From contig JAGLPV010000005.1 of NCBI GenBank assembly GCA_023137195.1, positions 1-63,711 on the forward strand: DNA of 63,711 nucleotides. Direction: 5' to 3'. The notes under the pieces are model-generated. The model saw nothing but the letters and a program-made list of their open reading frames with translations, had not been told where the DNA came from and searched no databases. Shown piece by piece: positions 5,202 to 50,949 of this stretch. Position numbers and translations under genes: made by a program. How positions within the stretch are numbered: position 1 is the first letter of the stretch; every line of letters starts with the position of its first letter. The stretch is from Candidatus Aenigmatarchaeota archaeon (GTDB taxonomy: Archaea > EX4484-52).

Positions 5202-5936
5202 ATGGTAATGCGCTCGGGAAATCCAGTTTTAAAAAATGACGAAGTATTCAGAAGAGAAGGGTCTGTAAATCCAAAATATGCAATGACCATAGAGGGAACA
5301 GTAAATAAAACATATTTTCTCCTTTTCCTTACCATACTTAGTGCTTCGTGGAGCTGGAACAAGCCTGATTTATTTATGCTGCTCATGATTGGAGGAGCAA
5401 TAGGTGGATTTATCACTGCTATAATAACGATTTTTAAGAAACAATGGTCTGGTTATACTGCACCTGTTTATGTGCTTTTTGAAGGATTATTCCTTGGAGC
5501 AGTCTCTGCTTTAATGGAGCAATTCTACCCGGGAATAGTGGTTCAGGCAATATTTTTGACATTTGGCACTCTTTTTTGCCTGCTCATGGCTTACAAGTCA
5601 AAATTAATCAAAGTGACTGAAAACTTTAAACTCGGCGTTGTTGCAGCTACAGGTGCTATTGCAGTAATATATATTCTAAGTTTCGTAATGGGTTTGTTCG
5701 GCATGAACATCCCTTTTATTCATGAAAGCGGTCTTCTGGGTATTGGATTTAGCTTATTTGTAGTTGTCATCGCTTCATTGAATTTAGTTCTTGATTTTGA
5801 CTTTATTGAAAACGGAGCAAAATCAGGAGCACCAAAATATATGGAATGGTACGGAGCTTTTGGTCTGATGGTTACTTTAATATGGTTGTATCTTGAAATT
5901 TTAAGGTTGTTGGCAAAATTAAGAAACAGGAGATAA
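5202..5936 (+). CDS. Bax inhibitor-1/YccA family membrane protein
   Basis: MT..GTVNKT, LVLDFDFIE.G...GAPKYMEWY.AFGL.VTLIWLYLEILRLL. Confidence 0.9.
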   Translation: MVMRSGNPVLKNDEVFRREGSVNPKYAMTIEGTVNKTYFLLFLTILSASWSWNKPDLFMLLMIGGAIGGFITAIITIFKKQWSGYTAPVYVLFEGLFLGAVSALMEQFYPGIVVQAIFLTFGTLFCLLMAYKSKLIKVTENFKLGVVAATGAIAVIYILSFVMGLFGMNIPFIHESGLLGIGFSLFVVVIASLNLVLDFDFIENGAKSGAPKYMEWYGAFGLMVTLIWLYLEILRLLAKLRNRR

Positions 5937-7154
5937 TTACTTATCAGCAATAATCTCAATCATATCCTTGTCTTTTAAGACATAATCCTTTCCTATGACC
6001 TGCTTTGTTTTCACATTGACCGCACGGATAAATTTCTCCCCAAAATCAGTATGAATCTTGAATGCAAAATCAAGGGCTGTAGAGTCTCTCTTCATTAAAA
6101 ATACATCGGGCAGAACATTGCCTTTTTTGTCGCAAAGTGTTTTTGTCCCGGCAGGATAGACACAGATGTAGTCAAGCTTGTCAAATACAGCATAATTCAA
6201 TATATTCAAAACACCTGTTGAGTCAAAGACATTCATTATGTCTTTTATCTTGTCCAGCGCCTGTTTTTGTTCGGAGGACAGTAAAGAGATTTTGTCTTCC
6301 TTTATTTTGAAGTCAGAGTTACCATATAAATAATCAACAATTCCTGCTTTCTGGGCATTCCTTAAAGCAAGTTCTCCTTCTGCAAAAATAGGAACAACCC
6401 TGCTATCGGTTGCAGATTGAAGTTCTTTTAATTTTTCTTTTGTCTTTTCGATGCCGTATTTTCCTATAAGTTTGTCTATCTTATTTGCGCCGATGATTAT
6501 AGGCTTGGTCTTTTTTCTTGCTTCTATTACGAACTGGTCTATCTGATCATCTGTCCATTCAATGAGATTATCGCTAAAACCCAACCGTTCATATATCTCC
6601 ATCGTATCTTCTTCTTTTAGGTTGATATTTGACAATTGCTTAGTCAATGCTTCAATTCCTTTTTCTTTTTGCATATGCGCTGTCCTTACAAATTTTCTCC
6701 AGTTTTTTTTGATAATCCCTATCAACCATAAATCTATTTCCTCTTCCAGAAATTTTATGTCATTTACTGGGTTGTGAGAGCCCATTTCTACGCTGTCTCC
6801 TTTTTCATTTGTGCTTCCTGAGACATCTACTATGTGGATTAGAGCATCGCAGAATATTAAATCATTCAAGAATTGGTTTCCCATCCCTTTGCCCTCGTGA
6901 GCTCCGGGAACTAAACCGGCGACATCTACCAGTTCTATTGGGATATATCTGTAGCCGTCTGTGCAAAAGCCTGTTCTTGGGTTGCATTGTTTTTCCACTT
7001 CTTTGCAGACGCATTTTATTCTGGCATATCCTGCACCGACATTGGCTTTGATTGTGGTGAAAGGGAAATTCTGGATATCTACATCTTTTAGGGTTGATGC
7101 TTTGAAGAATGTGCTTTTGCCTACATTTGGTTTTCCAACTACGCCAATTTTCAT
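5937..7154 (-). CDS. ychF: YchF/OLA1-related archaeal translation-associated GTPase (Obg family, TGS domain)
   Basis: GKPNVGKS, FPFTT, DVAGL, NKID, C-terminal TGS (A..IHTD); start MKIGVVG at 7154. Confidence 0.92.
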   Translation of the reverse strand: MKIGVVGKPNVGKSTFFKASTLKDVDIQNFPFTTIKANVGAGYARIKCVCKEVEKQCNPRTGFCTDGYRYIPIELVDVAGLVPGAHEGKGMGNQFLNDLIFCDALIHIVDVSGSTNEKGDSVEMGSHNPVNDIKFLEEEIDLWLIGIIKKNWRKFVRTAHMQKEKGIEALTKQLSNINLKEEDTMEIYERLGFSDNLIEWTDDQIDQFVIEARKKTKPIIIGANKIDKLIGKYGIEKTKEKLKELQSATDSRVVPIFAEGELALRNAQKAGIVDYLYGNSDFKIKEDKISLLSSEQKQALDKIKDIMNVFDSTGVLNILNYAVFDKLDYICVYPAGTKTLCDKKGNVLPDVFLMKRDSTALDFAFKIHTDFGEKFIRAVNVKTKQVIGKDYVLKDKDMIEIIADK

Positions 7155-8481: not shown

Positions 8482-8696
8482 GACTTTTCTACATTCTTAC
8501 AAAAAATACGGAAAATTCTGTTCTTTACGCTTACGAGTATTTTCTGCATCCCTACGAAATTTACATGCAGAAAATAACCATGAAAATCGCTGGGCTTACA
8601 AGCAATACCGCGCTTTTCAAGGTGTTTCGGTGCTCACTGCGGAATTTGCTCTCCTTACAGGTTATACGGCAAATTCCTTTGTTCACTACCGAAACA
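8482..8696 (-). repeat. tRNA-trailer structured element, copy A (four GTA-N6-GTA hairpin modules)
   Basis: Starts at the base after the tRNA-Gly discriminator; near-identical to 43608-43772; hairpins at 8641-8677, 8582-8618, 8538-8576 and 8482-8518. Confidence 0.85.
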
Positions 8697-8767
8697 TGCA
8701 CTAGCCGGGAATCGAACCCGGATCGTAAGCTTGGGAAGCTTAAATTCTACCACTATACCACTAATGC
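8697..8767 (-). tRNA. tRNA-Gly(CCC)
   Basis: Acceptor GCATTAG/CTAGTGC+A, anticodon arm TAAGC-TTCCCAA-GCTTA, GGTTCGATTCC T-arm; no intron, CCA not encoded. Confidence 0.96.
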
Positions 8768-8771
8768 ACAA

Positions 8772-9935
8772 TCAAAAAAACTTATCCTTCATCTTCTCGA
8801 AAAATGTCTCATTATGCTTAACATGATCATACTTACTCTCCAACTCCGACAATGCTTTAATATGCTCTTTCTGCTTATCACTCAAATCTGTAGGAACATC
8901 CACAATTATCTTGACCATCTGCTCTCCTTTCCTCCCGGTATGTGGATCTCTTATCCCTTTACTCCTAAGCCTAAATGTCGTGCCGGATTGTGTTCCGGGA
9001 GGTATTTTCAAATCATCAGTCCCTTTAAGTGTTGGAATTTTTGCACTTCCGCCCAACACAGCCGCAGTAAATGGAATATGAACAGTATTGAACACATCAC
9101 ATTCTCTCCTTTCAAACACAGCATCCGTCTTCACAGAAATCAAAATATACAAATCACCGGAAGGACCTCCTTTCCCCCCAGCATTTCCTTTTCCGCTAAG
9201 CCTAATTTTATATCCATTATCAACTCCCTCAGGAATTGTTATGTCCATCTCCTTTTTTTTCAAAACAAAACCGGCTCCGCCACAAACAGAACATTTTGCT
9301 TTACTTGTTTTACCCGTACCATTACATCTGGAACACATAGAAACACTTGAAAAACTCCCGAATATTGTATGCTTCTCTTCTCTTACTTTACCCTTTCCAT
9401 TGCACGCAGAACAGGTCTGCATAACACCATCCTTTGCCCCGGTTCCACGGCATGCAGGACATTTTTCCTTTGCATCAAAAACAACAGTTTTCTTGCATCC
9501 AAAAGCCGCTTCCCTAAATTCCAAATCAATCCTGTACACCAAATCTTCTCCTCTCTCAGGTCCTCTCCTTTGCCTTTGCCCGAATGGAGAAAATCCGCCG
9601 CCAAAACCACTGAACGCATTTTCAAATATATCACTTATATCTTCATAATCAACATTAACTCCTTCAAATCCTCCGCCACCAAAGCCGCCTTGTCCTGCTC
9701 CACCGGCACCGTATTTGAATCCCTCTGAACCAAAGCGGTCATATTGCTCTTTTTTCCCCTTATCTTTTAAAACACCGTAAGCTTCATTTATTTCCTTTAC
9801 TATCTCTTCATTTTCCTTGTTTCCCTTGTTCAAATCAGGATGATGCATCTTTACCTGCTTTCGATATGCTTTTTTTATCTCGCTGGCACTTGCATTCTTG
9901 TCCACACCAAGTGTTTTATAATAATCTTTGCTCAT
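8772..9935 (-). CDS. dnaJ: Chaperone DnaJ
   Basis: J domain with HPD, G/F-rich linker, four CxxCxGxG repeats. Confidence 0.97.
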   Translation of the reverse strand: MSKDYYKTLGVDKNASASEIKKAYRKQVKMHHPDLNKGNKENEEIVKEINEAYGVLKDKGKKEQYDRFGSEGFKYGAGGAGQGGFGGGGFEGVNVDYEDISDIFENAFSGFGGGFSPFGQRQRRGPERGEDLVYRIDLEFREAAFGCKKTVVFDAKEKCPACRGTGAKDGVMQTCSACNGKGKVREEKHTIFGSFSSVSMCSRCNGTGKTSKAKCSVCGGAGFVLKKKEMDITIPEGVDNGYKIRLSGKGNAGGKGGPSGDLYILISVKTDAVFERRECDVFNTVHIPFTAAVLGGSAKIPTLKGTDDLKIPPGTQSGTTFRLRSKGIRDPHTGRKGEQMVKIIVDVPTDLSDKQKEHIKALSELESKYDHVKHNETFFEKMKDKFF

Positions 9936-10024
9936 ATATTTTTGAATCAACAAATCTTAAAAAACTGTTGTAAAATATAATTTATTTTTCGATACATTAA
10001 TAAACTTAATTTATTCTTTCATCT

Positions 10025-16961: not shown

Positions 16962-17077
16962 ATTATATCACGGCACAAAAGTAATGCAAGTAATGTGGCG
17001 CGATATACTAGCAAAATACATAAATACTATCCAAATACCAATTATATTTTTTGCATATTTATGTGTTTTGCTATAAT
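16962..17077. repeat. Composite palindromic element, short copy (116 bp)
   Basis: Ends ATTATA...TATAAT; two hairpins; shares both ends with 50680-50949. Confidence 0.8.
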
Positions 17078-22473: not shown

Positions 22474-25400
22474 ATGAAATACAAAACAGGATTTTTTAGT
22501 CTAAAAAATGCAACTTGTATCTTTGTATTTTTTACTGCTCTTTTTTTTATTAGTAACATTGTCTATGCAGTAATAGAAGTTGTTGAAAGTACAAATAGTC
22601 TGGGTTATTATTCTTCAATTGCAATAGATTCTAATGATAAGGTGCATATAAGTCATCATGATTACTCAAATGGTAATTTGCGATACTGCAACAATACAAA
22701 CGGCGGGTGGTCATGCAATGATATTGAAACAGTAGGTAATGTTGGACTATATACTTCAATTGCAATAGATTCTAATGACAAGGTGCATATAAGTCATCAA
22801 AAATATGTTCATTTGGCGAGTGAGTTGAGATACTGCACCAATGCCGGTGGCTCATGGACTTGTAGCACGGTTGATTCCTTAATTGATGTTGGACGACATT
22901 CTTCAATAGCAATAGACTCCAACGGCAAGGTGCATATAAGCCATAATTCTCATATCGCTCCAAATGCAGGTTTACGATACTGCACCAATGCCGGTGGCTC
23001 ATGGACTTGCAATGAAATAGATGCGGCTTATAGATCAGGGTACTATTCTTCAATAGCAATAGACTCCAATAATAAAGTGCATATAAGTCATCGTTATGAT
23101 GATTCAAGTGAGAAGGATTTGCGATACTGCACCAATGCTGGTGGTGGATGGTCATGCAGTACTATAGATAGTATAGGCGATGTTGGTCATTATTCTTCAA
23201 TTGCAATAGATTCTAATGATAAAGTGCATATAAGTTATTCTGATGGAGGAAACAGGGATTTAAAATACTGCAACAATCTCGGTGGTGGATTTGTATGTAG
23301 TGCTGTTGAAACTATAAATAGTGTTGGACGCTCTTCTTCAATAGCAATAGATTCTGAGAATAATGTGCATATAAGCCATAGTGATTCCACAAATAGTGAT
23401 TTGCGATACTGCAGTACAACGGATTATTCTACGTGGAACTGTGAAATTATACATGATTTGACTAGCTATGATTTTGGTGTTTATGGCGGTCGCGGCATAG
23501 CAATAAAAAAAGGCAGGATTGTTGATTCAACCTCCTTTTCAAACGATATTCACCTTTCGTATATGGATGATGCATCTTGGGATTTATACTACGCCAAACT
23601 CGTAAATTATGCTTATTCTTTTTATGTATCTGACTGTTCTGTCCTGAGTGAATCAGGCACATATTATTTGACTCAAAATATACTTGGTTCCTCAACTGAT
23701 CATTGTATAGACATAACTGCAAATAATGTAATTCTTGATTGCCAGGGACATACAATTGAAGGAGATGATGTAGCAGATTACGGAATTTATATACACAGAA
23801 CTTTCTCAGAAACAACAAACATAACCCTAAAAAATTGTGTGCTTACGCACTGGGATACAGCAAATGTTTATTTATATCATGCAAACGATAATAATTTGGA
23901 AAATCTAAATTCCACTTCATCTCCGGATAATGGCTTCCATATCTACTATTCAAATTCCAACAATCTTACAAACATCACAGCGAATTCTAATGTTCGTGGT
24001 ATATATATGGAGTATTCAGACTCCAATAATATCACCAACTCCACAGCTAATTCCAATAATGTCGGCTTCTATTTTGTCCATTCAAATTTCAATACTGCTA
24101 AAAACAACACAGCGAATTCCTGTTTTGAATCCGGTTTCTATATTTCTGATTCAGACTCCAATATTATTACCCGCTCCACAGCCACTTCCAATACTCAACA
24201 TGGTTTCTCTTTTTTCTCCTCTTCTTCAAATAATCTAATGGATTTTACTGCAAATTCCAATAATGAATATGGAATTCAAATATCCTACGATTCAGACAAC
24301 AATATAATTGCAGATTCATTAATATATAATAATACTGAGGGGGGACTTTTTTTAGACAAATGGGGCTTAAACACACCTGATGAGAATAAGATATACAACA
24401 ACTTATTCAACAACTCATTGAAGAACATTGATGTAGATGGAGGAATGTCAAATGTTAATTATTTAAATACGACAAAACAAACAGGGCTTAATATATTTGA
24501 TTCAAATAACCCTTATATTGGCGGCAATTATTACACAGATTTAACAGGAACTGGGTTTTCTGAGACCTGCGCAGATTTAAATACTGATGGATTCTGTGAC
24601 AACAAGCGTATTTTAACAGCAATAGGGAATTCTGTGGCAGAGGATCATCTTCCTTTAAGCAATAAATATACTACTGCTTTATTCATTATAACTTCAAACA
24701 CTCCGTTAAATGAAACAACATCTTCCGACAATACTCCAAATTTTGATTTTGCGACCACAGGAAGTAAAAATTATTATTCCTGCGAGTTGTTTATTGATAA
24801 TATTGGTTTTGGAATAAATGATTCTGTTTTAAACAACACACCCACAACAATCACAGCAAATCCAACACTTATAGATGGAACTTACGATTGGTACATAAAC
24901 TGCTCTTTTGGAGGTGTTACAAACCAGTCAGAAATCAGGGAAATAACAATAACTGCACCTACTCCGTGCACAGATGAATACGACTGCAATCTTTGCCAGA
25001 AATGCATTTTAAATACTTGCACAGACCAATCAAGCAGCGAAGACCTAAAAAATGAATGCCCTAATTACTGCGATGGTTCAGGTTCATGCACTCCGCTGGG
25101 AGCCGGAGATTGCGGCGTAACGCCAGACGGGAAAAACATCAGCATTGCCAGCAAATACAATATTTCCGGACTTTTCAAATGCGAAAAAATAAACTTAAGC
25201 GAGTATTACTCTGACTGTACGGGCAGTGAAACAACAATATACTGGTGGAACGGAACCAACTGGAAGAAAAAGATACCTATTGGCTGCGAATGCAACTTAA
25301 ACACAGAATGCCAAAGTAGATTCTGTTATTATGGAGTTTGCAATGAGCCAATAAATACTTATCCAACAGTCTTATTTATAAACAGGACAATAACTGCTCC

Positions 25401-43607: not shown

Positions 43608-43772
43608 TGTTTCGGTAGTGAACAAAGGAATTTGCCCCTTAAGAGCAAATTCCGCAGTGAGCACCGAAACACCTTGAAAAGCGCGGTATTTAGCGTAAGC
43701 CCAGCGATTTTCATGGTGTTTTTCTGCACGTAATTTTCGTAAGACTGCAGAAAAATGTCGTAAGCGTAAGAA
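43608..43772 (+). repeat. tRNA-trailer structured element, copy B
   Basis: Starts at the base after the discriminator; same sequence as copy A apart from loop indel/substitutions and compensatory stem changes. Confidence 0.85.
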
Positions 43773-43795
43773 AACGAATCCTCGATATTTATTAT

Positions 43796-44407
43796 TCAAT
43801 CTACATCCATTCCCTTCAAATCAGAAATTAATAATTCAATATTATTCTCTTTATCATCATAATAAATTGTATTTATTCCCATTTTAGAAGGAATCTCTAA
43901 ATTTTTTTTGGAATTATCAATAAACACAATCTCCGATGGATTAAGATTAAATGAATTTAAAGCTGTCTCGAAAATAATAAATTCTGTTTTTAAACTATGA
44001 ACTTTTGAGGAAATAATTATTGAATCAAAAATTAAATCCAGGTTAAACTCTTTTTCTAAAACATTAAATCTTTCTATAGGATTATCCGTTATAATTCCAG
44101 TTTTATATCCTCTACTTCTCAAATATTTAACCAAATCAAACATCGGACTATTTTTTGGTGTACTTAGAAAAGCTTCTTCCAATAACTTATTATCAATATT
44201 ATTATTAATTAAATTATTAATTTTAGGTAGAACATCTGAATATTTCTTATATCCTAATAATAAATCTAATTTATGGTTTTTAAAAGAGTCAATAAGTAAA
44301 TTGTAATCAATACTTGTATTTTCACTTATATACTCACATGTTTGAGCAGTACCACTATTATTTAATGTTAAGACTCCATCAAAATCAAAAAAAATTGCTT
44401 TAATCAT
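43796..44407 (-). CDS. HAD-superfamily hydrolase
   Basis: FDFDGVL, ITDN, K, FIDN...N motifs; very AT-rich. Confidence 0.88.
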   Translation of the reverse strand: MIKAIFFDFDGVLTLNNSGTAQTCEYISENTSIDYNLLIDSFKNHKLDLLLGYKKYSDVLPKINNLINNNIDNKLLEEAFLSTPKNSPMFDLVKYLRSRGYKTGIITDNPIERFNVLEKEFNLDLIFDSIIISSKVHSLKTEFIIFETALNSFNLNPSEIVFIDNSKKNLEIPSKMGINTIYYDDKENNIELLISDLKGMDVD

Positions 44408-44585
44408 ATTCTTATAAATAAAAGAATAATATAAATAACTTTCTAAGGTAAAATTAGACCGAGTAATATTGCACATAATGACCATTAAACAAATTATTTT
44501 TCACTTAACGTTATATTATGACACAAAAAGCAAACCCACAAAAAAATCAATCAATTATAAAAATCTCACCCAACATATATCTTAC

Positions 44586-50330: not shown

Positions 50331-50702
50331 ATGAAAATAACAATCAACAACAAGGAAATAGACAATATTATTTCAATGAAGAGTATATTTCAACTTACAA
50401 AAGGACTGATGTTCAAAAAAAGCGGCAGAGCTCTACTTGTATTTCCACTTAATGCAAAGCACTCCATCTGGATGGCTTGCATGAAATATTCACTGGATTT
50501 GATTTTCATTGATGAAAACTATAAAATTGTTGATATTTTTGAAGATGTCAAACCATTGACATTAAATCCAAAAACATGGAAAACATATATCCCTAAACAA
50601 AAATGCAGGTATGTACTTGAAGTTGAATCCGGTTTAATCAAAAAATATGATTTGAAAACAGGAATTTTAGTTAAGTTCAATTATATCACGGCACAAAAGT
50701 AA
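50331..50702 (+). CDS. DUF192 family protein; last six codons and stop supplied by the palindromic element
   Basis: KGLMF, IWM..M...LD.IFID, YVLEV..G. Confidence 0.88.
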   Translation: MKITINNKEIDNIISMKSIFQLTKGLMFKKSGRALLVFPLNAKHSIWMACMKYSLDLIFIDENYKIVDIFEDVKPLTLNPKTWKTYIPKQKCRYVLEVESGLIKKYDLKTGILVKFNYITAQK

Positions 50703-50949
50703 GGCAAGTAATGTGGCGTGATATAATCTCAAACGCAATTATATTACCCGTTATGCTAATTGCGTCTTCGAATATATTCACCCGCTCTTTGCGGTCGAAT
50801 ATACTAGCAAAATACATAAATGCTATCTAAATACCGATTATATTTTTGTATTATTTTCTGCTGTGAATAAAGTATAAGCAGAAAATAAGCTTAAAAGTAG
50901 TATTTTGCGTAGGGAAACTTTTATGATTATTTATGTGTTTTGCTATAAA
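50680..50949. repeat. Composite palindromic element, long copy (270 bp) with two nested inserts
   Basis: Same outer modules as 16962-17077, plus a 78-bp and a 76-bp two-hairpin insert. Confidence 0.8.

Follow-up and report, generated by a model that had tools for sequence, protein, structure and literature searches.

The window analysed here, i.e., the whole stretch of 63,711 nt that constitutes contig C45 of the archaeal genome bin G000, contains two tRNA genes, tRNA-Gly(CCC) and tRNA-Phe(GAA), each of which is followed without a gap by a copy of the same structured element. The element is ~170 nt long, comprises three hairpins (H1, H2, and H3) and a single-stranded tail, and has a sharp 5' end (T1) as well as a sharp 3' end, which reads ...GTCGTAAGCGTAAG(A/G)A. 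An earlier note on this DNA had claimed a common trailer directly behind the discriminator base of both tRNAs, and the alignment has confirmed this: the trailers align from the first base past the discriminator (T 8696 and T 43608) with an identity of ~86% over 162-172 nt (E = 6e-52), and the element proper terminates with ...CGTAAGCGTAAG(A/G)A at 8521 in copy A and at 43773 in copy B. It also holds, as stated there, that the two tRNAs have only CA in common before the junction. The extent that the note had assigned to the Gly locus (8482-8767) stands as far as the element end at 8521, whereas the remaining segment, 8482-8520, has been identified as a degenerate second H3 with its tail. The tRNA genes have been called with ARAGORN and Rfam, and these features of the window are as follows:

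8697-8767, minus strand: tRNA-Gly(CCC), ARAGORN call, Rfam tRNA score 58.9 bits, CCA not encoded
8521-8696, minus strand: element copy A, 176 nt, R1 model 193.9 bits, fold -55.8 kcal/mol, z -4.5
8624-8695, minus strand: H1 of copy A
8577-8623, minus strand: H2 of copy A
8538-8576, minus strand: H3 of copy A
8521-8537, minus strand: tail of copy A
8482-8520, minus strand: degenerate additional H3-like module with decayed tail (CCGTATTTTTTGTAAGAATGTAGAAAAGTCGCATTGAG) and the same GTA-N6-GTAAG loop
43535-43607, plus strand: tRNA-Phe(GAA), ARAGORN call, Rfam tRNA score 70.3 bits, CCA not encoded
43608-43773, plus strand: element copy B, 166 nt, R1 model 193.5 bits, fold -53.6 kcal/mol, z -4.35
43609-43670, plus strand: H1 of copy B
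43617-43662, plus strand: conserved H1 core of copy B, with bulged A, two pairs, tandem sheared G.A/A.G, and AAA/GCA internal loop
43671-43717, plus strand: H2 of copy B
43671-43725, plus strand: H2 of copy B (CCUUGAAAAGCGCGG...CCCAGCGAUUUUCAUGG) together with the T5 run, the most conserved part of the element phylum-wide
43718-43756, plus strand: H3 of copy B
43757-43773, plus strand: tail of copy B

The G000 bin (1.42 Mb, 57 contigs, 35% G+C, 85% complete) belongs to a DPANN archaeon, a tiny symbiont, with an EF-2 nearest to that of metagenome-assembled genomes labelled Nanohalarchaeota or Aenigmatarchaeota, introns in many of its tRNAs, and an encoded archaeal RNase P RNA. A profile search has revealed ~19 full-length copies of the element in this bin, in addition to fragments. 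Twelve copies begin at gap 0 or -1 past a tRNA called by ARAGORN, and five seeming orphans have been found to follow intron-containing tRNAs of 93-130 nt that are detected by Rfam only, which brings the copies starting at gap 0 or -1 to 17 of the ~19, after 17 different tRNA genes. Two further copies start at gap 0 and are interrupted: behind tRNA-Ser(GGA), a 22-nt partial H1 precedes a full copy, and behind tRNA-Val(TAC) (C26:206-300) H1 is split by a 78-nt insert, the copy at the same tRNA in G003 being uninterrupted. H1-only remnants lie behind tRNA-Ser(TGA) and tRNA-Cys. About half of the ~37 tRNA genes are thus occupied, and many contigs of the bin terminate within an element copy. Exceptions to the rule comprise one decayed copy, which lies at the 3' end of an open reading frame (ORF) on C8, one that is 5'-truncated (C43), and those that a contig end interrupts. 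An element as frequent elsewhere as at tRNAs had been named beforehand as an observation that would speak against tRNA specificity; only a few decayed or truncated copies exist away from tRNAs.

The sequence in front of the junction does not account for its position. The words preceding it vary (..GTGCA, ..TCCCA, ..CAGCG, ..AGGCT), and the structural position alone is constant. For 16 of 17 tRNAs, no word of at least 8 nt from the last 25 nt recurs within 600 nt downstream, the remaining case being a single chance 8-mer, in line with the earlier observation that a duplicated tRNA 3' half is missing. The proposal that targeting depends on the structure or the processed end of the tRNA rather than on its sequence has been corroborated by at least 17 different G000 tRNAs with the element at gap 0 and by the rule for both strands described below for genus g11. 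An assembly artefact, which had been considered as a source of the two copies, is excluded because the same junction is seen on 14 G000 contigs, in two more genomes of this genus, and on independent metagenome contigs of the Joint Genome Institute (JGI). The metagenome scan has yielded three element-bearing contigs, all from the metagenome Ga0164318, two of which equal G003 contigs in size.

The fold of the element is strongly supported by covariation. H1 starts with an outer stem of 9 bp that differs between subfamilies yet always pairs (TGTTTCGGT/ACCGAAACA, TTAAAGGTG/CGCCTTTAA, and TTAAAAAGG/CCTTTTTAA), and continues with a bulged A and two covarying pairs; the tandem G.A/A.G comes next, followed by another two pairs, the AAA/GCA internal loop, and an inner stem of 9 bp that covaries and carries a loop of variable length. 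The tandem G.A places AGUGAAC opposite CAGUGAGC; its G.A is retained in 30 and its A.G in 32 of 34 copies, while the flanking pairs covary. H2 is almost invariant across copies. H3 is a palindrome, UUUUUCUGCA...UGCAGAAAAA in one subfamily and UUUUUUCGU...ACGAAAAAA in another, which yields T5 on both strands, with such runs at both of its ends. A GUA-N6-GUAAG loop is common to all three hairpins, and GUAAG appears once more in the tail. Compensatory changes have been observed in 21 of the 46 predicted pairs among 15 copies; for 34 copies from three genomes, 96.2% of the cells are paired and 27 of the 46 pairs have changed on both sides. With the same 34 copies, none of 500 shuffles has matched the observed covariation, and sliding the pairing partners lowers the covariation score from 0.40 to ≤0.09. 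Pairs of the G.U type outnumber A.C (44 vs 21, 34 copies of genus g1), and from this excess together with the retention of G.A it follows that the fold belongs to the strand with tRNA sense.

Neither an ORF nor an Rfam match, even at E up to 10, has been found for the element. Its hairpins are subterminal, with H1 at the 5' end and H3 15 nt from the 3' end; terminal inverted repeats are absent, as the 5' end (TGTTTCGG or TTAAAGG) is unrelated to the 3' end (CGTAAGCGTAAG), and the flanks show no target-site duplication. The modules are combined in a mosaic manner, identical H1 being joined to different types of H3. Several known identities have been tried and rejected. A 5S rRNA riding on tRNAs, as in Yarrowia, is incompatible with H1, which is a closed hairpin of 73 nt, with the lack of an RF00001-like fold, and with the congeneric G002, which does without the element. 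For a C/D or H/ACA small RNA (sRNA), neither RUGAUGA/CUGA boxes nor an ACA with a pseudouridylation pocket have been found by inspection, and no Rfam family matches. A coding sequence is precluded by loop indels of 10-13 nt that break all frames, and by covarying stems. An origin of the outer stem from an inverted target duplication does not agree with identical outer stems behind unrelated tRNAs. The kink-turn (K-turn), which binds L7Ae, consists of a C stem, a 3-nt bulge, and a tandem G.A/A.G that abuts the C stem on the non-bulged strand. In H1, the tandem G.A is conserved, two covarying pairs (alignment columns 11-65 and 12-64) lie between it and the outer stem, and the bulge consists of one A only, which is not the canonical form of a K-turn.

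The distribution has been followed through a GTDB phylum set of 42 genomes, in which genus g1 comprises G000-G003 and the carrier genomes are 57-86% complete. The full element occurs in three of the four species of the genus (G000, G001, and G003), in G001 and G003 likewise at gap 0 past tRNAs. G002 has given no match to either model, and its 25 tRNA genes possess plain T-rich 3' flanks. Occupancy also varies among the carriers; tRNA-Glu(CTC), for example, bears the element in G001 and G003 but not in G000. A diverged form of 103 nt, which consists of H1 with the same bulged-A and tandem-G.A core, H2, and T5, is present with 30-34 units per genome in all four genomes of g11, a genus of another family than g1, and the G.A-bearing form is confined to these two genera among the 42 genomes. 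A T5-8 run lies behind H2 in all g1 and g11 copies. Simpler relatives of 78 nt (T5-hairpin-A5, GCTTGAAAAT...ATTTTCATGA, and T5, without the G.A core) are found at 4-16 per genome in most g6, g13, and g8 genomes; of the 14 inspected, most lie behind ORFs and none is flush with a tRNA. The H2 motif CTTGAAAAG...GATTTTCATG with T5 is preserved in g11, g6, g8, and g13. In g6, a simple H1-H2 unit has also been noticed in sense orientation upstream of tRNA-Ile(GAT) (L147, G035:C70; L148, G029:C33), where its T5 run blends into a TATA-like TTTTTATAG ~26 nt before the tRNA and may supply promoter sequence. A viral or plasmid source has been considered and dropped, since of 12 viral contigs that shared a 16-mer none matched the model.

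A second view of the junction has been obtained from g11, for which the coordinates of 113 units have been compared with 92 tRNAs. All 28 sense units beside a tRNA start at gap 0 past the discriminator. A further 24 units are antisense, with their head directed to tRNA position 1 at a distance of 1 nt (17 units), 2 nt (5), 0 nt (1), or 3 nt (1), and 28 units prolong tandem arrays, while element tails almost never face a tRNA. Occupied are 46 of the 92 tRNAs, six of them on both sides. The units keep their own fold on either side: when a unit is compared with its reverse complement, the strand of the unit gives the better structure in 24 of 25 sense units and in 19 of 20 antisense ones, and the G.U counts are 35 vs 28 and 44 vs 23 in the two unit classes. 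The classes also favour different heads, TTTTTAATG next to tRNA 5' ends and, next to 3' ends, TCTAC... or TTTTTGGCG. As the acceptor stem is self-complementary, the antisense strand offers an equal geometry, namely the end of a 7-bp helix, one unpaired nucleotide, and then T1. The rule in g11 is that the element head lies one nucleotide beyond the acceptor helix, on either strand.

In a tree of 34 copies, the groups correspond to genome and subfamily and not to the identity of the tRNA; the G003 copies of Leu(AAG) and Phe form a pair (99/97), as do the G000 copies of Gly(CCC) and Glu(TTC) (95/88), the shortest terminal branches measure 0.011, and for Phe, Val(TAC), Leu(TAG), and Glu(CTC) the copies from different species separate. 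The only orthologous pair is Leu(TAA) of G000 and G001. Tandem, partial or truncated, and nested copies are common. The same gene has been found downstream of Leu(CAA) with its element in G000 and of Glu(CTC) with its element in G001, which suggests recombination between copies. In G003, a second repeat of ~85 nt (..AATCTGCAAATATTT..TTTGAGA..TTTTGCTTATA..) has been noticed between H1 and H2 at two loci (L109, G003:C50; L110, G003:C14) and forms a small nested element.

The genes next to the two copies in the window are the following:

8772-9953, minus strand: dnaJ gene (Pfam DnaJ), TGA stop at 8772-8774
43796-44485, minus strand: HAD-hydrolase gene (Pfam), convergent with copy B

The tRNA-Gly(CCC) gene starts 4 nt past the dnaJ stop, which leaves no space for a promoter of its own, and a co-transcript of dnaJ, tRNA-Gly, and the element is likely, judging from this arrangement. 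Both window copies face convergent genes, copy B ending 23 nt from the HAD-hydrolase stop codon. Away from the tRNAs, two near-identical hairpins of 44 nt (TATATCACGGCACAAAAGTAATGCAAGTAATGTGGCGCGATATA) with a GTAA-N4-GTAA loop have been observed at ~16965-17010 and ~50690-50735 of the window (plus strand). Further hairpins with the GTA-N6-GTAAG loop lie at 50900, 53249, and 53328 (plus strand), and elsewhere in G000 at C7:6891/6967 and C14:19951/20030. This recurring loop motif may point to a factor that binds all such loops, or to a hairpin family of wider extent.

Among the genes for tRNA processing, RNase Z is encoded in G000 on contig C9 (269-1643, minus strand; TIGR02651, 333 bits vs a cut-off of 293). 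This gene ends one base before tRNA-Leu(TAG), which itself bears the element at gap 0 and is part of the same putative transcript. RNase P RNA has been found in G000, G003, G014, G019, and G022; in G000 its gene (C56:24430-24710, minus strand) lies 14 nt from the 3' end of the convergent tRNA-Arg(GCG) (24344-24415, plus strand). The idea that the 5' antisense units act as leaderless promoters at a fixed distance, comparable to the RNase P-less Nanoarchaeum, is weakened by the presence of this RNA and by the lack of a fixed TATA position upstream of the G000 tRNAs. The only ORF family with multiple copies in G000 encodes a protein of 278 aa that looks Bro-N/antirepressor-like by eye. Its five copies are located at:

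C1:63050
C2:46857
C4:54392
C48:4011
C55:30025

On contig C15 of G000 (5583-6813, minus strand), a 275-aa ORF lies between a full element and a second H3 half with tail and an additional hairpin H4 (GTTATGATAAC..CTGTATT..); by eye, the N-terminal part of its product looks like a nuclease of the PD-(D/E)XK type.

The literature searched contains no description of the element. The closest documented cases are dicistronic tRNA-sRNA genes, structured repeats of bacteria, and a palindrome of Methanopyrus kandleri. In Nanoarchaeum equitans, tRNA-Val and C/D sRNA8 are made from one dicistronic precursor (PMC3491384), and in Yarrowia tRNA-5S genes one RNA is attached to many different tRNAs (PMC2566860). 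The likeness to the former lies in a structured RNA right behind the tRNA, of which an RNase Z cut would make the 5' end, and to the latter in the single RNA behind many tRNAs. The dicistronic tRNA-snoRNA (small nucleolar RNA) genes of plants are also released by RNase Z. Unlike such genes, the element falls into no known RNA class, is missing in a congener, forms tandem and partial arrays, and stands antisense at tRNA 5' ends in g11. The M. kandleri palindrome, CGTTA-N9-TAACG, follows half of the tRNA genes at a distance of ~10 bp and is of unknown function (PMC5217627). It resembles the element in being a conserved hairpin that accompanies around half of an archaeon's tRNA genes on their 3' side, but is a simple 18-nt sequence at a gap of 10 bp, compared with 170 nt, three hairpins, and gap 0.

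Short mobile repeats offer a further comparison. Repetitive extragenic palindromes and bacterial interspersed mosaic elements (REP/BIME), pneumococcal BOX, Correia elements, and the palindrome-associated transposable elements (PATEs) derived from IS200/IS605 are likewise short, non-coding, modular, non-autonomous, and hairpin-forming, with compensatory subfamilies and often a terminator-like character, and PATEs similarly lack terminal inverted repeats and target duplications. None of these, however, is flush with tRNA ends; their RAYT and Y1 TnpA partners are absent from the element carriers, and the fixed target word of 4-5 nt of IS200/IS605 PATEs contrasts with an element that has no short sequence target. 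Classical miniature inverted-repeat transposable elements differ by their terminal inverted repeats and target duplication, of which the element has neither, and integrase-borne elements in tRNA genes duplicate the tRNA 3' part, whereas here no copy is made and the junction lies past the discriminator. A folded single strand as the target is known from class C group II introns, which insert after terminator hairpins, from IS1111-attC elements, and from integron attC. For these the enzymes are known, i.e., an intron-encoded protein with reverse transcriptase (RT), a DEDD transposase, and IntI, none of which has been detected here. To our knowledge, the tRNA fold has not been described as an insertion target.

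With a junction that is exact to the nucleotide on either strand and at >60 different tRNA ends from seven genomes, the placement is not the outcome of random insertion. Gene conversion is excluded as the source of the junction because no flank is shared, and integrase-type recombination because no repeat exists. The tRNA fold is read by something, be it an insertion machinery or RNase Z together with selection. We give about an even chance to a non-autonomous, strand-specifically folded element that is targeted to the end of the acceptor stem, a reading that includes a mobile element tamed by tRNA transcription and processing. The element would be copied between tRNA loci, its site being picked not by sequence but by a single strand with the fold of a tRNA, which would be RNA or else DNA made accessible during transcription or replication, and its insertion would leave neither a target duplication nor a copy of the tRNA end. 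Copies at 3' ends would then be transcribed from the tRNA promoter as a trailer and probably be cut off by RNase Z, while the T5 runs present on either strand, after H2 and at the two ends of H3, may allow the element to double as a terminator that is tolerated or useful. A mobile element depending on, or tamed by, tRNA transcription and processing would combine the insertion and the RNase Z readings. The antisense class, presence and absence among species, copying of subfamilies, and arrays follow naturally from insertion on a tRNA-shaped strand. In a more far-reaching version, put forward as a tentative possibility, the element would represent a new class of mobile elements targeting the tRNA fold, which inserts head first, without duplication, and one nucleotide beyond the acceptor helix on the sense or the mirror-tRNA strand, by an enzyme unrelated to known integrases, HUH transposases, or RTs, possibly a co-opted enzyme that recognises tRNA ends.

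Several points weigh against targeted insertion. The tRNA-adjacent copies are strikingly intact with a near-invariant H2 and tail, and the Leu(TAA) copy of G000 and G001 looks vertically kept, so that gene conversion, or a host function under purifying selection, fits as well as recent copying does. We know of no enzymatic precedent for fold-guided insertion into tRNA-shaped single strands. Regarding filled and empty orthologous sites, synteny with G002 is limited to the upstream side, the downstream flanks being rearranged; insertion has been inferred and not seen, as no such pair is alignable with both flanks conserved. An RT or HUH partner gene, for which the earlier note had suggested a search, has not appeared in G000: RVT_1 (PF00078) is absent from G000, G001, G003, and three of the four g11 genomes (G014, G022, and G040), and Y1_Tnp (PF01797) from G000, G001, and all four g11 genomes, G003 containing only a 71-aa fragment, although these absences are soft evidence in genomes of such completeness. 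Neither family tracks the element, and no mobilising enzyme has been found. A multi-copy transposase-like ORF is missing in G000, and the 275-aa ORF of C15, tried as the gene of an autonomous copy, lacks any Pfam domain and does not occur in other carriers.

The earlier note had left three options side by side, a tRNA-targeted mobile element, a SINE-like (short interspersed nuclear element) or tRNA-primed element, and a dicistronic tRNA-noncoding RNA gene. The last of these agrees with the 3' copies and with the encoded RNase Z, and leaves the 24 copies facing off tRNA 5' ends unexplained. As a pure host family of noncoding RNA genes, the copies would be dicistronic precursors made from the tRNA promoter, with a 5' end set by RNase Z at U1 and a 3' end by the T5 after H2 or by the tail; the G.A and the GUA-N6-GUAAG loops would bind protein, and selection would keep only those copies that RNase Z can release. 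The exact start past the discriminator on the tRNA strand (17 G000 copies and 28 of 28 g11 sense units) speaks for such genes, as do the strong covariation, the conserved non-Watson-Crick G.A, the sense-strand G.U excess, the decay of copies off tRNAs next to a near-invariant H2 and tail, and the precedents of N. equitans tRNA-C/D sRNA (PMC3491384) and Yarrowia tRNA-5S (PMC2566860). Yet the 24 units at 5' ends in g11 are out of reach of any tRNA promoter and still keep the sense fold, which would need antisense transcription through the tRNA genes; the congeneric G002 lives without the element, occupancy varies by species, the copies group with others of their genome and not with those of their tRNA, RNA genes seldom form tandem and partial arrays, and Rfam family as well as C/D or H/ACA boxes are wanting. 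We regard an exclusively host-encoded RNA family as rather unlikely.

Another explanation, which we consider quite improbable, is a non-mobile cis-acting module for termination, insulation, or processing, selected and homogenised by gene conversion, in which hairpins flush with the acceptor stem and oligo-T on both strands would block read-through in both directions. It agrees with T5 on both strands (after H2 and at both H3 ends), with H2 standing between A5 and T5 in g11 and in the ORF-trailing relatives of g6, g8, and g13, with the convergent genes faced by the window copies, and with the palindrome ~10 bp past half of the tRNA genes of M. kandleri (PMC5217627). However, oligo-T alone suffices in archaea, so that three covarying hairpins with a G.A motif far exceed the need; gene conversion is unable to seed new tRNA loci at the exact junction, head-to-tRNA orientation and a strand-specific fold are superfluous for a symmetric terminator, and G002 has no element. 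The T5 on both strands and the terminator-like character of the simpler relatives favour some role of this kind, though not one that would explain the structure in its entirety. A SINE-like or tRNA-primed retroelement, or the scar of an integrase in tRNA genes, would account for the association with tRNA genes, the many copies, and the lack of an ORF. It is largely refuted and very improbable, the retroelement by the missing RVT_1 in G000, G001, G003, and three of the four g11 genomes and by a tail (CGTAAGCGTAAG) without poly-A or target duplication, the scar by tRNAs that are complete, of many identities, and without a duplicated 3' segment.

For annotators, the analysis provides covariance models of a family that is missing from Rfam, and the element accounts for breaks of metagenome assemblies at tRNA loci. 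If the element finds tRNAs by their shape, DNA would have a novel means of selecting where it inserts, and the enzyme would be worth finding. If it is a released RNA instead, about half of the tRNA genes in a DPANN lineage would give rise to an abundant structured RNA that carries a G.A motif of the protein-binding type.

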